A stretch of 64,000 bases of DNA from Porphyridium purpureum (Eukaryota), in NCBI GenBank assembly GCA_008690995.1, contig VRMN01000001.1, positions 2,604,001 to 2,668,000 of the forward strand, in the 5' to 3' direction. The notes below the pieces were generated by a model, which saw nothing but the letters and a program-made list of their open reading frames with translations, had not been told where the DNA came from and ran no database searches. Below, piece by piece: positions 3,116-10,037 of the stretch (positions are counted from its first letter, which is position 1; every line of letters starts with the position of its first letter). The position numbers were made by a program, and so were the translations under genes.

Positions 3116-3448
3116 GTTTGCGACTGGATTCTGCGGATAAAGTGTCGAATACTTCGGAACCGATACAGAGTCAACACTTCAGATTTCTTTTGCTTTGCCT
3201 GTTTTTGCGCCGGTTGAATCTGCTTTGCCGGCGCTGCAGTCGGTCAGGTGTGGCCCGCGTCCCCCTCGCGCCTCTTATACATCGCACGCATCGCCACATC
3301 GGCGCGCGTCTTACATTTGATGTCAGCGCCCATGCGCAAGTCCATGGCGCGCAAGTGTAAGCTCATGTAAGGAGTTCGCTGTACTACTTACAAATCACTG
3401 TACTTCTTTTTGGGGGAAACGTTGGGGGTACAGTGCGTCCAAACAAAC

Positions 3449-4245
3449 CTTGGAATTTCTCCCTTTCTGCTTTGTAACCGAATCAACAAAACCGGATCGC
3501 TTCACCGATAACAGGAACTGGAAACCGCCACACCCCGGAAACTGACAAACCGACGACGAACCGACACACCGAAACGAACGGAAGGACAAGCAGGACAATC
3601 AGAGAAAAGTGGCTAGAAAGGAAGAGAGGACAGAAAATTCAACTTATAGGGGACTACGAGAGGGAGTGGACCGGTCTTGACAAGTGAAGGGTGATGGAAG
3701 GTACGTTTAAACCCCAGCTGCCTTTTTAAAAACACTCCAGACCGATATCCGCTCGCACAACACGCTAGCGTGCCTCTCCCGCAAATCCAACCCAAGTCTT
3801 CCAACGACTGCCTCAATCCAACTAACCAATTCTCTTTTTATTCTATTTGCCCTTACCTCTTCTTCTACCTTGACCTGGAAATTCCTGGGAACCAGCTTGC
3901 CCCTTCGTCCTTTTATACCCTTCGTCCTTGCTCTTTCCAGCAAGGACGGGAGAACAAATTTCTCCAACAGGACGAATTTCCACCACAGGTTTTGATTCGT
4001 TCCACAACTCGCAACCACAGCCGGCCACGTATCCGGAAAATGGCCGGGAAGGCGCGTCAAGAACGAATCCAGAAGCTTCGGCCGGCCTTTGACCTTTGCA
4101 CAAGGTCACACAAAACGACAATGACAAACATTTCGCAGGTCCGAGATCATCACGCTTCTCGAACAATCTTTCATCATAGAACTTTCTAGGGTTTTGTACT
4201 CAAAACCCTACGGCGTCTCTCGGGGCGGAACCCTAAAATTCCACG
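3449..4245 (-). repeat. 3' LTR
   Basis: Direct repeat of 8412-9207. Core TGGAATT...AATTCCA spans 3451-4243. The only difference I saw is one extra A in the TTTTTAAAAAC run near 3730. Confidence 0.95.
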
Positions 4246-7200
4246 CTCCTCCTTCCGGTCTGAGGGACGCGTAACTTCTCCCAGCACTTAATGTGGCCCT
4301 CCGGAAATAAGGCCTTGGTCATTAAGTCCGCCACATTTTCGTCCGTCTTCACAAATGCCAGTTTCACAAGTTTCTGCTTTTCGCACACCTGATGCAACCA
4401 GGCCAAATCTGTTGCTCGGGTTATCGCCATATGATGCAACTTTGGCGAGTACCCCATCTCTATTGCTCGCATCACAGCTTGATTATCACACATCAAAATC
4501 ACCGAGAACTCTCCGTCACGTATACTTCGCAAGAAAGACAATGCAGGAAACAACGAGAGTTGCACAGTTTCCTCTAGGGCGGCCAGCTCCGACTCTGAAG
4601 TCGACGAGCTCACGAAACGCTGCTTTCTTGAAGACCAATCCACTAGGTACTTGTAATCTCCAGCAACTAAGTACGTTGCTCTTCCAGAAGTCGACACACG
4701 ACTCTCTGGACAACCAGCAAAGTCAGCATCCGTGTATCCAAGAATGTTCACCCCTCTGATGCCTTCCTTGAGATTCCCCAACACGTGATACTCCAATGCT
4801 TCCCGAGGTGTTTTCAAATACTGCACGACTCGTACGAGCAGCCTTTCTGCTGCCACATTCCACTTGTCAACGTACCGGGCAATCATACCGACTGCATACG
4901 CAATATCAGGTCGAACCGTTCTGGCGAGCCACACAGCCTCCCGACGTGTTCTCTTACTTTCAAAGTCTTCCAGATGACTTGATAATTCAGAACTTCCTCG
5001 CCATCTAGCTTCTCAGATGGTGACTTCACGGCACGCAATACGCGTCTAATATCCTGCTCGAATTCCCGAATGACCACATCTTGATACTCTTGATTCGCCA
5101 AACTCACGTTCCCATTTTTGAGGGAAATGCTCGTCCCCAGGAATCTCAAGGATCCCCCTTCCGTCAATAGTTCTGGTGCTTTTTCTATGAGAAACTCTTG
5201 TTTCAATTCTTCGATGATTCCTGGGCGTTCCTCCTCTCGACAGGCTAATAGACCATCATCCACGTACAGAGCCAACAACGCAACTGACGAACTTGCAGCA
5301 TTTCTCCGGACGTACACATTCTTTTCACCATGCACGAGCTTCCACTGGAACTTTTGCAATCTCCTCCGAGCATCTTGTGAGAAATCCGAGCCGCTCCTGG
5401 GCAAGCCATACAGCGCCTTTCTCAGCCTGACTACTGTGTCTTTTGAATCACAAATTTCACGCGGTAAATATGCAAACGTAGGTGGCCCAGACAGGTCCGC
5501 ATGGAGGTATGCCGAGCTGATGTCGAAGCTAACAATCTGAAGGCCCAGAATTGCAGCCACAGCTATTATCATTCGGATAGCTGACAAACCAGCAGGCGTC
5601 TCATAATCAAAAATGTCATTCGTCGCAGCTCCATCGGACCCCCATATCCTGTTTCCCCCGGCCACCAAGCGGCACTTCACCTTGCGAAATTCTTCCGGCA
5701 TCTCAGCAAATTTCAGATCGAAAATGAAATGTGTGCGTACGAAACGAGCACCAGGTTGCCTCCGGGCCTCCTCCAGCGTCAAGGGACTCTCATCCCATAC
5801 CCCAAATTTCAGCATGGATTTGACTTCTTTTTCCATCGCGGCTCGTCCTTGCTCAGACGCCAACGCCGCTCCAGTTTTCATCAAAGTCGTCAAGTTCAAC
5901 TGTGGGATCGTCACTGGACCACCCGTGCCTGCTGCCCGTTCCTCGTCAACCACTCTCACTTTCAATGCCTCGATCTCTTTCTCAAGCTCCGCTTCTCGAG
6001 CTCTGAGAGCATCGATACGACGATCCAAGTCCTGCACCGCTTCAACCGCGGATGGTTCGTCCACTTCTGGCAACTCTTCCTGCTGGCTCAGGCTCACCAT
6101 CTCTCGTTCGATTCCCTTTAAAGGGAACTCATGGGGAAATGCCTTAAAATCCTGAGTGCGAATTACTTTTGGGGTCTCACTCGTCCAGTCATCCCGAGGA
6201 AGCACCAAAATTGCCATCGGATGCTCTCCAACGCCGACGAGAATGCCAACTTTTCCTCGCGGTGCATACTTATTGTCAGGCTGATCATCTTCGTAGACCA
6301 CCTTGCACCCGAATGGCAAACCAAGATTTTTCGGCGACCATTTTTCACCATGTCGTAATTCAAACGGCGTCTTTCCAGACTTCCTGCCCACGTGCAGTCT
6401 ATTCGTCATGAACGCAAAATGCTGCGCGGCGTGCATGAACCAACGCTTCCCGAGCCCGGCCTGCACAAGATTCGCACGGATTCCCTGATTCAGCGTGTGG
6501 TGAAACCGCTCCTGTTCAGCATGACTGTTTGGCCTGTACGGAATCCCCACCTCGTGCTTTATGAGGTGTTCACGCACCAGTCTCCCCACATCTCCCTTGA
6601 ACTCATTCCCATCATCCGTTCGCAAAACCTTCGGCCATCCTCTCCCGGCTTGCACACTTTTCCAAGCGTCCGCAACCGCCGTGTGAGTTTTCGCACGTAG
6701 CCCCGCCAATGTCACCCATCCTGTGGCTCTGTCGATATGCGTCAAAATAAATTTTGAACCATCTACCGACTTCACATTTCGCCCAGGCTCCACCAAGTCA
6801 ATTCCGACTTCATCATTGAATGACAATGCACTGACATCTTTCTCCAGCCTTCGGGCCGGGCGTCGCTTTATCTTCGCCACGACACACGTCTCACAGTCTC
6901 TTTGCATAGGCATGTGAGTCAACTCGTGTTCCGAAGCAGCCACGCTCTGATTTTTCCCGTCAAGCTCGGGAACCACTTCTTCAACATTTTCCAACGTGCA
7001 TATTTCCTTCCCCTCGGGCCTCGTTTCCATCAGTCCCTTCTGCCAATCAATCTTAGGATTCACCATCTTGAGCCATTTCCACCCTAAGATGGCATCCATA
7101 CGAATGGGACCGATATAAAACTCGACGTTCCCTATCCAGAAACCGAGGTCCACCGCAAGCACAATGGGGCCGTGCACCTTCATTCTCTGTCCTCCCGCAA

Positions 7201-7438
7201 GCTCGACCATGCATTCATCGCAACTGGACTTTACGCTTGCGTCCAAGAATCGGGACCCCAGGAAATTATGCGACGCTCCACTGTCAATCAAGAAGTCGAT
7301 TTTTGAACCACTCACTTTCCCATGTTTGTAGAAGAGCCTTGACCTCGCACCCTCGTGCGCAACACCTTCCACAACACCCATTACAGGAGGCTCCATTCCC
7401 CTCGAGATCTCCTCCTGTCTTGGCTCTCGAGGTCTTAG
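4233..7438 (-). CDS. pol: Pol polyprotein PR-IN-RT-RNaseH (Ty1/copia order), broken by a 1-nt frameshift near 4935
   Basis: Protease LIDSGASHNF / DAILG. Integrase HELTH..C..C, GIDL, RTDDGNEF, QERF, GKTPFE, PFGC. RVT_2-type RT KCRLVAGG, FDISSAYL, LRKALYGLPRSG, LYVDD. The ORF at 4233-4934 carries RPDIAYAV, YTDADFAG, SSTSESE, CDNQA and NVADLMTK (copia RNase H). Confidence 0.92.
4246..4256 (-). promoter_or_regulatory. Polypurine tract
   Basis: GGAAGGAGGAG lies immediately before the 3' LTR. Confidence 0.85.
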
Positions 7439-7444
7439 TTTTCC
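7383..7444 (-). promoter_or_regulatory. -1 programmed ribosomal frameshift signal (slippery heptamer plus H-type pseudoknot)
   Basis: G GAA AAC (7444-7438) directly precedes the gag TAA, and pol is open in the -1 frame. Stem 1 is CCTCGAGA/TCTCGAGG and stem 2 is ACAGGAGG/CCTCCTGT. Confidence 0.8.
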
Positions 7445-8382
7445 GGCTCTGGCGGACCACCTGCCAAGCGCTCCTTCAATTTAGGGCATTTGGGCTTAAT
7501 GTGTCCACGTTCTCCACAATGGTAACACTTCACTTTGGTCTTGCCAGACTTCCGCTTGTCCATGGCTCCCAAATCCATTGGTGCGCTACCAGAATGCGAC
7601 GAGAACGCCCTGCTATGAGTCGATGACGAGTTCTTGATCACTTGACTCATATCTCCTCCGAACTTTGCAACCTGCTCAGCTGCCAACGCAACTTTCAGTG
7701 ATTCTTCCAAGGTCCTTGTGTCCTGACGGGCCACCTCAATACGCAGTTTCTCCTTCAAGCCCAGCGTGAAGATGGTGTTCAGTTCTGCATCTGTCACATC
7801 TTCAACTGATAACGCTGTCATCCTGAGATTCTGCTCAAATTCTGCGACCGTCATTTTCCCTTGCTTCAACTGATACAGATTGGTGCGCGCTGTCAAATGC
7901 GCCTGCGGCGGCTCAAACGCTGTGCGCACGAAGTTTGCGAACGCATCCCATCCGGCCTCTGCAAGGCCCTTTCTCTGCTCCTCCGGACGAGCTGCCCAAA
8001 GCAGCGCTGCGTCCCTCTCGAAAAAGCGACTTGCAACAATCACTTTCTGCGAGTCCAAAGCATCTGCGGGCATGCAGATATCCAGGTCGCTCTTCATTCG
8101 CATCAGCCATTCATTGACAACGAGCTTGTCACGCTGACCATCAAACTTTCTCAAACTGCGCCCAATTAACGCGGCCATGGCACGATCGTTGTCACCAGAC
8201 CCAGACGCCACGGTCTGCTGGCGCAACAAAACATGCATCATTTCATGGAGGTTACGATTCGCTTCCTGCACTTGTGCCATCATCATCTCCTGTCCCGCAA
8301 TGCGCGCATGCAGCTGATTAGCTGCCTCAATCCATGCCGCATTCTCCTGCGGGACATTCATTTCCATTTCATGGCTTTCCAT
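7435..8382 (-). CDS. gag: Retrotransposon Gag (Ty3/gypsy-like capsid plus CCHC zinc knuckle)
   Basis: KFDG...WL, LYQLKQGKMTVAEF, F..GLKEKLR.EV, APMDLG, and CYHCGERGHIKPKC. First ATG is at 8382. Confidence 0.9.
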   Translation of the reverse strand: MESHEMEMNVPQENAAWIEAANQLHARIAGQEMMMAQVQEANRNLHEMMHVLLRQQTVASGSGDNDRAMAALIGRSLRKFDGQRDKLVVNEWLMRMKSDLDICMPADALDSQKVIVASRFFERDAALLWAARPEEQRKGLAEAGWDAFANFVRTAFEPPQAHLTARTNLYQLKQGKMTVAEFEQNLRMTALSVEDVTDAELNTIFTLGLKEKLRIEVARQDTRTLEESLKVALAAEQVAKFGGDMSQVIKNSSSTHSRAFSSHSGSAPMDLGAMDKRKSGKTKVKCYHCGERGHIKPKCPKLKERLAGGPPEPEN

Positions 8383-8393
8383 TTTCTCCAAAC

Positions 8394-8411
8394 AACCGGG
8401 CGATGATACCA
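8394..8411 (-). promoter_or_regulatory. Primer binding site (tRNA-iMet type)
   Basis: TGGTATCATCGCCCGGTT lies immediately after the 5' LTR and resembles the canonical iMet PBS TGGTATCAGAGC. Confidence 0.85.
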
Positions 8412-9207
8412 CTTGGAATTTCTCCCTTTCTGCTTTGTAACCGAATCAACAAAACCGGATCGCTTCACCGATAACAGGAACTGGAAACCGCCACACCCCG
8501 GAAACTGACAAACCGACGACGAACCGACACACCGAAACGAACGGAAGGACAAGCAGGACAATCAGAGAAAAGTGGCTAGAAAGGAAGAGAGGACAGAAAA
8601 TTCAACTTATAGGGGACTACGAGAGGGAGTGGACCGGTCTTGACAAGTGAAGGGTGATGGAAGGTACGTTTAAACCCCAGCTGCCTTTTTAAAACACTCC
8701 AGACCGATATCCGCTCGCACAACACGCTAGCGTGCCTCTCCCGCAAATCCAACCCAAGTCTTCCAACGACTGCCTCAATCCAACTAACCAATTCTCTTTT
8801 TATTCTATTTGCCCTTACCTCTTCTTCTACCTTGACCTGGAAATTCCTGGGAACCAGCTTGCCCCTTCGTCCTTTTATACCCTTCGTCCTTGCTCTTTCC
8901 AGCAAGGACGGGAGAACAAATTTCTCCAACAGGACGAATTTCCACCACAGGTTTTGATTCGTTCCACAACTCGCAACCACAGCCGGCCACGTATCCGGAA
9001 AATGGCCGGGAAGGCGCGTCAAGAACGAATCCAGAAGCTTCGGCCGGCCTTTGACCTTTGCACAAGGTCACACAAAACGACAATGACAAACATTTCGCAG
9101 GTCCGAGATCATCACGCTTCTCGAACAATCTTTCATCATAGAACTTTCTAGGGTTTTGTACTCAAAACCCTACGGCGTCTCTCGGGGCGGAACCCTAAAA
9201 TTCCACG
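8412..9207 (-). repeat. 5' LTR
   Basis: Direct repeat of 3449-4245. Core spans 8414-9205. Minus-strand TATAAAA at ~8873-8879. Confidence 0.95.
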
Positions 9208-10037
9208 CAAACACCAAGCGATTCCGTGAAGGTGGGCTAAGCGCGTAGAAACGGCGCCTATGGCTGCGCGTTTCCATGTTGCGAAACGCGGATTTGCGAC
9301 GTGTGCTGAGAATGTCTCCGCGAAATGGGCTCCGGGAATGGGTCATCCACAGGCAGCCATGAGGCACCGATTTGTGTTCAGAGCGCAAGCCGTCGTGCTT
9401 TCGTCTGCGATTTGAGATTTCCTATGCAAGTGATGCCGATTTGGAGCGGATGCCGAAACGGCCAAAGACAAATGTCGCGCTGGACAGAATCACGTACGGC
9501 GTAGACGCAGCGCATATAAAGCGCGACCACACCGAAAAGTGCCAGAAGTGCCAGACGGAAGGAGCAAGGAAGACGCAAGAGTGAAGACATACACGGCGAC
9601 CAAGCCAAAGCCAGAAAAGGAGAGGAACGTGCTTTCATCATGTGGGACTTTGCAGGATTGTTCGGGGATGAGAAGCGTCGAGCTCTAGACGCAACAGAGT
9701 CGCAGAGGATGCTCTCTGCGAACAAGGGATTGTTTCAAAGTCAAGACGCAAAGGCTGTAGGGAATCAGCAAGGCTTGAGGCCGGCCCGTGGGATGAGAAG
9801 GTCATTCTTCAATCGTTCGCAGCGCAAGACGGGTACCGCCGTGAGAATGAACTCCCTGTCTTCTCCGCGGCTTCAGCAGTACGATCGCACATCGAGCCTC
9901 GGGCATGTGGTATGCCTAGAGCGTTGTCTGTCCGTAGAGGAACATCGCAGTTCGCTCTTACAGCTGAAGCAGTCAGGGTTAATTTGAAGCTATGCTCTAT
10001 GTAGATAAAGTCCAATCTGAATTTCATTTCCTTAATA

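Follow-up and report, generated by a model that had tools for sequence, protein, structure and literature searches.

A recently inserted retrotransposon of Porphyridium purpureum that appears to combine a Ty3/gypsy-type Gag and protease with an integrase, reverse transcriptase, and RNase H of copia type

Introduction

Copia (Pseudoviridae) and gypsy (Metaviridae) long terminal repeat (LTR) retrotransposons count as separate lineages, sorted by reverse transcriptase (RT) and domain order. Here, we analyze an LTR retrotransposon of Porphyridium purpureum, a small, culturable, unicellular red alga. The element lies on the minus strand at 3449–9207 of a 64,000-nt stretch of DNA (hereafter the window; assembly GCA_008690995.1, contig VRMN01000001.1, positions 2,604,001 to 2,668,000). 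A preliminary description, made from the sequence alone, had read it as a gypsy-type Gag and protease (PR) placed on a copia-type integrase (IN), RT, and RNase H (RH), an assignment that Pfam matches, profile comparisons, separate domain trees, and sibling families now support.

Ty1/copia elements share with the window element the order PR-IN-RT-RH, the RVT_2 domain, a copia-type IN tail, the ADxxTK motif of RNase H, and a 5-bp target-site duplication (TSD). The window element differs from them in Gag (PF03732/PF19259 rather than PF14223) and in the protease tail (ILG, not LLS), as well as in its compact H-X3-H-X6-C-X2-C zinc motif, the −1 relation of gag and pol, and its CG...AG ends. Ty3/gypsy elements, represented by the Ty3, dArc, and PEG10 capsids, share the capsid family, the ILG protease, and an overlap of gag and pol that bears a −1 slippery site and a hairpin, whereas the RT, RNase H, and integrase of the window element are copia-type and stand in copia order. 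Protease tails have been sorted into an LLS class for copia and an ILG class for the others, with ILG found in nearly all non-copia proteases; the Ty1/copia reference table gives ILG in 0 of 69 elements, LLS in 62, and a lost motif in 7, and among 71 elements with the integrase after the protease ILG occurs only in two Gmr1 gypsy elements (PMC2774666; published sources are cited here and below for excerpts of their text). Gmr1-like gypsy elements resemble the window element in having an ILG protease followed by the integrase and then RT, but Gmr1 is classed as Ty3/gypsy in the same source, and the window RT and IN are copia-type.

Two further groups invite comparison. A copia lineage with the compact HHCC zinc motif (P0186, P0197, P0198, P0204, P0334, P0061; from ENA, JGI, Logan, and MMETSP; P numbers denote stored proteins and X numbers public sequencing runs) shares this motif and the IN, RT, and RNase H lineage of the window element but carries a copia-related Gag and an LLS-like protease. 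GalEa elements (CoPorcru1/2, PyRE10G) share the copia order, a red-algal host, and the YVDD and RPDI motifs, and CoRex1 has two open reading frames (ORFs); their published descriptions set them apart by a TGGTAGCAGAGC primer-binding site (PBS), TG...CA ends, an LLS protease, and an HX4HX30CX2C motif (PMC3587641, PMC5445492, PMC2774666). PyRE10G has a gypsy-like integrase according to the title of its report, whereas Gag and protease are the gypsy part of the window element. Recombination within copia has been reported for REXdb, from which apparent chimeras were removed as probable errors (PMC6317226). No description of a gypsy Gag-PR on a copia IN-RT-RH was found among the titles and abstract openings that searches of open-access literature listed, a scope outside which lie Repbase, subscription papers (e.g., Peddigari 2008), and bioRxiv supplements.

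Results

Gag (8382–7435, minus strand, from ATG to stop; 315 residues) consists of a predicted N-terminal coiled coil, a Ty3/gypsy-type capsid, and a single CCHC knuckle. In Pfam, Retrotrans_gag (PF03732, E 4.5e-9) and Ty3_capsid (PF19259, E 1.3e-8) both matched above cut-off; copia Gag families, PF14223 included, gave no match at E ≤ 1, and no copia protease family matched. The copia Gag profile likewise scored at most 2.5 bits on the Gags of the mixed families described below. A profile of six Gags aligned with Ty3, dArc1/2, and PEG10 over the capsid and with the Copia virus-like particle protein over the knuckle only; once freed of the knuckle, the profile comparison gave a probability of 99.1 against gypsy versus 24.4 against canonical copia. 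ESM Atlas rows for Gag listed Retrotrans_gag, Ty3_capsid, PNMA, and knuckle families, with the copia Gag family absent, and Foldseek searches with the Gag model returned dArc, Ty3, or PEG10 at all of ranks 1–10 and Copia at rank 14. When the Gag-PR of a sister family was searched against the whole database, three matches were obtained, namely itself and two full gypsy polyproteins. We read Gag as Ty3/gypsy-type on these profile and fold comparisons. The preliminary description had relied on three signatures, QLKQGKMTVAEF, APMDLG, and the CCHC knuckle, all of which are present; APMDLG was dropped as a gypsy diagnostic because P0076, a copia-type polyprotein, contains a similar one.

The aspartic protease (7031–7336, minus strand) lies within pol and carries the motif LIDSGASHNF...DAILGWKWL..VNPKIDW, as the preliminary description had noted. 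An ILG-type tail was found in five of five mixed families and in three of three gypsy references, and in none of 48 copia-type proteases (0/12 from the sister lineage, 0/3 from Porphyridium families with a copia Gag, and 0/33 canonical), with no motif found in five more. By the criterion for the LLS-type copia protease (PF22936), the window protease falls outside that class. In the protease tree, the five mixed families joined gypsy with a support of 100/100, and an approximately unbiased (AU) test rejected their grouping with the sisters of their own IN and RT (p = 0.036). Atlas rows for the protease listed RVP, RVP_2, and related families, with the copia protease family absent. Motif, Atlas rows, and tree agree in assigning the protease to the Ty3/gypsy-retroviral (ILG) type.

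The order PR-IN-RT-RNase H and the pol motifs KCRLVAGG, LYGL, YVDD, RPDIAYAV, and ADLMTK were all located on the minus strand, as first described. The integrase (6146–6928, minus strand), placed before RT, has the very compact H-X3-H-X6-C-X2-C zinc motif, a D,D(34)E core whose spacing is one residue under that of canonical P0004 by hand count, and a copia-type SH3-like tail, supported by Pfam and the IN trees; no chromodomain or gypsy IN-tail family was detected in Pfam. The RT (5057–5746, minus strand), with YVDD intact, matched the copia-type RVT_2 family (PF07727; E 9.6e-19, 68 bits against a cut-off of 31.6), with no RVT_1 match at E ≤ 1, so that the per-domain profile check proposed in the preliminary description came out in favor of gypsy families for Gag and RVT_2 for RT. 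The C-terminal part of pol (4233–4932, minus strand) holds the RT tail (RPDIAYAV) and, by the RT-RH trees, a copia-type RNase H (core ~4748–4263) with the ADxxTK motif, here ADLMTK; all 232 of 232 residues are identical to those of the intact sibling P0031.

Identity of RT-RH to canonical copia was ~24–31%. A sensitive search recovered relatives at ~30–39% identity, many of them with the compact zinc motif, and in the RT-RH trees these relatives and the element formed one branch apart from canonical copia (99; 100/100). The element was split from gypsy at 100/100 in the RT tree; in the IN tree gypsy fell outside at 100/99, and IN was also split from gypsy at 100/100. Gypsy-rooted IN, RT, and IN+RT trees all placed the mixed families on the copia side, nested among the compact-zinc relatives, with a support of 98/97 (also 90/97) for IN+RT, where grouping with gypsy was rejected (p = 0.047). 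Profile searches assigned this sister lineage a copia-related Gag and protease (probabilities of 95.9 and 96.8, respectively). We read IN, RT, and RNase H as copia-type but divergent. Separate trees, which the preliminary description had called for, thus divide the element, with the protease going to gypsy and IN and RT to the copia type. The reference set comprised sequences other than named GalEa, Ty1, and CoDi elements, and three rows missed by the motif pattern were left out of the RT tree.

In several related families of stored P. purpureum proteins, integrase and RT are separated by a Myb-like DNA-binding domain (P0048 807–856, P0182 315–361, P0200 83–129, P0335 722–748), with a best E of 3.3e-5, just below the Pfam cut-off. 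This domain may be a targeting module; the window family has a coiled-coil-like stretch in its place. Relatives P0169, P0197, P0210, P0212, P0213, P0215, and P0326 have extra domains, namely a weak Tet/JBP-type oxygenase, an AAA-type NTPase, and CCCH and CW zinc fingers, with one cyclin-fused model.

Five P. purpureum families share the gypsy Gag-PR and copia IN-RT-RH, at pol identities of ~35–73%; a search for siblings had been suggested in the preliminary description. Near-identical proteins carry the name P. purpureum in their source databases. Counted as members of protein clusters, which stand in for copy numbers here, the window family has 16, a family 66–72% identical to it has 17, and the P0179, P0181, and P0331 families have 4, 4, and 5, respectively; the siblings examined were annotated proteins and contigs of public runs, and in many of them a single ORF encodes protease, IN, and RT. 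Among the 341 stored proteins, 44 had a gypsy-type Gag or protease, comprising 3 true gypsy elements and 41 mixed-family proteins, and no mixed-family member came from outside Porphyridium. No relatives turned up when metagenomes were scanned with P0031 or viral contigs with a gypsy polyprotein. Because the mix is common to five Porphyridium families, it points to an old lineage rather than a fresh recombinant. Of the two options offered at first, a recombinant or an undescribed lineage, the data favor an old lineage that arose through module exchange.

In three other Porphyridium families (P0335, P0337, P0338; represented in the RT-RH tree by their cluster mates P0193, P0190, and P0199), Gag, protease, and integrase are those of canonical copia, and RT-RH falls on the divergent branch described above, a combination suggestive of a second exchange, at the IN/RT border. 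For their canonical integrase, the AU test was not significant (p = 0.106), so the second hybrid draws on branch support and Pfam.

The window copy is complete from LTR to LTR, with exact boundaries. Its LTRs, the 5′ LTR of 796 bp (8412–9207, minus strand) and the 3′ LTR of 797 bp (3449–4245, minus strand; 5′-CGTGGAATTT...AAATTCCAAG-3′), differ by one homopolymer base and by no substitution, and a Logan run contig spans exactly 3449–4245. The element is flanked by CAAAC on the left (3444–3448) and right (9208–9212). In 4 of 8 public runs, from four studies, the empty site is represented by a contig in which 3443 connects to 9208; 5764 bases are skipped, and the two sides overlap by 5 bases. 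The TSD and this joint together define an element of 5,759 bp and a 5-bp duplication at a site that is unoccupied in other samples. Near-identical LTRs had led the preliminary description to propose recent transposition, and identical LTRs and empty alleles support recent transposition of this copy. Filled-site contigs in X7 and X19 extend just 29–30 bases into the LTR, under the bridging limit, and are hints only. The P. purpureum genome paper reports a recent LTR expansion, with repeats given as RepeatModeler class counts only in the excerpt cited (PMC6811547).

Immediately after the 5′ LTR is the PBS, TGGTATCATCGCC (8399–8411, minus strand), which we take to be a likely match to initiator-methionine tRNA; no tRNA gene was found within the 64,000-nt window. 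The polypurine tract (PPT), GGAAGGAGGAG (4246–4256, minus strand), adjoins the 3′ LTR, and the pol frame crosses it to a stop codon inside that LTR (4233–4245, minus strand). The features listed at first are present, but two had been overlooked, the CG...AG ends and a break between RT and RNase H. The latter is a one-base frameshift (4932–4934, minus strand): a base is lost near 4933, which leaves the window copy disrupted. In 8 of 8 runs, the contigs of the family have one base more at this point, siblings P0001 and P0031 read through, and P0035 shows the same break as the window copy. The break is private to the window copy or its assembly, being either a lesion or a long-read assembly error. 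Unless it is an assembly error, this copy likely lacks an RNase H product; intact siblings exist.

Both LTRs read 5′-CGTGG...CCAAG-3′, so that the ends are CG...AG and TG...CA lies two bases inside (3449–3452, 4242–4245, 8412–8415, 9204–9207). The outer two bases belong to the element, as indicated by the empty site, the contig spanning 3449–4245, and contig or loose ends at 3449, 4245, 8412, and 9207; further loose ends lie 1–6 bases outward, which chance flank matches may explain. Retroviral and Ty3 integrases trim two such terminal bases. Since the two outer bases are retained here, the integrase likely joins the DNA ends without 3′ processing. Non-TGCA ends are known in copia, from Tos17, TARE1, AcCOPIA1, and TGTT/AACA elements (PMC5659011) and in 3 of 26 CoDi families (PMC2806351). 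Like the window element these depart from TG...CA, but their terminal bases are changed, whereas the window element keeps TG...CA two bases inside both ends. A related element, present in runs X1, X7, X9, and X19, agrees with the LTR over its first six bases, and in X1 with the PPT as well, before diverging at 4240.

Gag and pol overlap, and the pol frame is −1 relative to gag. A −1 programmed frameshift is defined by a slippery heptamer, a spacer of 5–9 nt, a downstream structure, and pol in the −1 frame. The sole X_XXY_YYZ-type match in the overlap, the candidate heptamer G_GAA_AAC (7438–7444, minus strand), stands immediately 5′ of the gag stop, and folding predicts a hairpin with an 8-bp stem (7400–7432, minus strand) 5 nt past it, so that heptamer, spacer, structure, and frame were all found. 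The hairpin folds at −14.1 kcal/mol (z −2.81), with 4 of 200 shuffles equally good; a longer folding window gave a different fold (z −1.73). Gag of the 72%-identical sister family (P0049) likewise ends in P-E-N-stop, and 7 of 8 runs cover the junction with no indel. No splice joint was seen at the junction in 8 runs, and splicing remains compatible with the data. From these sequence features we infer that Gag-Pol is made by a −1 frameshift at G_GAA_AAC. To our knowledge, a −1 shift is atypical of copia elements. Modes of expression described for copia include the Ty1 frameshift, Tca2 readthrough, a single ORF, and splicing (PMC5580714). The gag-pol joins of deposited models (P0002, P0047, P0048, P0053, P0035, P0331) differ from one another, and the zinc knuckle is often lost; these joins look like invented introns bridging a frameshift.

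In the remainder of the window (10038–63450), many long uninterrupted eukaryotic ORFs were seen, up to 2614 residues, among which formin-like, phosphatase-like, and tRNA-synthetase-like proteins were recognized by eye only.

Discussion

The reading that we hold with good, though not complete, confidence is that the window element is a recent insertion from a multi-copy family with a gypsy Gag-PR and copia IN-RT-RH, whose ancestor long ago had its copia Gag-PR replaced by that of a gypsy element. A sister lineage with a copia-related Gag and protease makes the copia type the likely ancestral state. The swap point would lie between protease and integrase, so that each protease stays with its own Gag. 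In the mechanism that we propose, Gag would be made from a single LTR-driven RNA, on which a minor fraction of the ribosomes, aided by the hairpin, would slip by −1 at G_GAA_AAC before the stop to yield Gag-Pol. RNA packaging would fall to the gypsy-type capsid, and cleavage of the polyprotein, the copia-type enzymes included, to the gypsy-type protease. For priming, RT would use a host tRNA at the PBS and the PPT, and the integrase would join DNA ends that keep their last two bases, giving the CG...AG ends and the 5-bp duplication.

Several observations weigh against this reading. No gypsy donor was identified. Both AU rejections (p = 0.036 for the protease and 0.047 for IN+RT) are marginal, and the single-domain AU tests leave a basal position of the families unrejected (RT, p = 0.128; IN, p = 0.202). 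Trees were computed under LG+G4 with no mixture model, and two bootstraps were unsettled. The Pfam matches of the window protease are mostly under cut-off and generic, and the same generic families weakly match the copia-type proteases P0061 and P0249. For Gag, the best single-sequence match in PDB is the copia virus-like particle protein, over the knuckle region, and the VIA-align Z scores (13.3 for PEG10, 11.2 for the copia capsid), obtained with a model of predicted template modeling score 0.35, barely discriminate. The gypsy references, three for the protease and two for Gag, were picked by similarity to this element, a bias from which the Pfam, PDB, and Atlas tests are free. Frameshifting and the joining of unprocessed ends are predicted steps of this reading. 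Finally, the mixed families do not form a single clade in the RT-RH or protease trees, so one swap is indistinguishable from several, and several captures of gypsy Gag-PR are possible.

Among the alternatives, the one that survives best, although we regard it as unlikely, is that no swap took place and that the families branch before all other copia; they would have kept an ancestral capsid like that of Ty3 and an ILG protease, both altered later in the remaining copia elements. In its favor, nearly all non-copia proteases show ILG (PMC2774666), the RT-RH lineage stands well apart from canonical copia (100/100), and a root on this branch is what the single-domain AU tests leave unrejected. Against it, IN+RT nests the families among elements with a copia protease and rejects the basal root, and the sister elements carry a copia-related Gag and protease. 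The protease is also about half as far from gypsy as the RT is (2.69 versus 5.23), whereas for each of the other 8 group pairs RT gives the smaller distance.

Somewhat less probable still is that the element has already been described, as CoPorcru1/2 of the GalEa clade, as a PyRE10G-like element, or as a Repbase entry. CoPorcru1/2 came from expressed sequence tags of P. cruentum, the same species, and were placed in GalEa by RT-RH (PMC3587641), and, judging by its title, a published report deals with a copia element of a red alga whose integrase is gypsy-like. The GalEa hallmarks given above, from the PBS to the HX4HX30CX2C motif, are however absent from the window element, its integrase groups with the copia type and not with gypsy, and the genome paper of P. 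purpureum, in the excerpt cited, holds RepeatModeler class counts only.

An artefact or one-off, whether an assembly mistake or a gypsy and a copia element nested or recombined at this locus alone, has very little left to commend it. The named assembly is a Nanopore hybrid and the window copy has a private indel, but the locus has a single LTR pair, PBS, PPT, and TSD, and PR, IN, and RT share an ORF in many siblings. Single contigs cover gag through RNase H in the independent runs X1, X8, X5, X11, and X17, and with the four further families of the same build they rule this reading out. A wholly gypsy element of Gmr1 type with its integrase moved before RT, suggested by the ILG protease and the integrase that follows it in Gmr1 (PMC2774666), can be set aside as next to impossible, since RT matches RVT_2 and not RVT_1, RNase H has the copia ADxxTK motif, and the RT and IN trees separate the element from gypsy at 100/100.

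If the replacement of Gag-PR is accepted, a multi-copy, recently mobile hybrid lineage indicates that the structural module can cross the copia/gypsy divide by exchange and remain functional. More tentatively, and with somewhat less than even conviction, we suggest that Gag-PR, IN, and RT-RH are modules exchangeable across copia and gypsy. On this broader proposal, one alga would hold an active radiation in which five families combine a divergent RT-RH with a gypsy shell and three combine it with a canonical copia Gag-PR-IN, the integrase of the window family would join unprocessed CG...AG ends, and such hybrids may be recurrent but hidden by RT-based classification. Annotation pipelines would be expected to cut them into false 'Gypsy' and 'Copia' pieces. 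Questions that the lineage makes testable are how foreign Pol comes to be packaged by a capsid, how a protease adjusts to cleavage sites that are new to it, and whether an integrase can act without 3′ processing.

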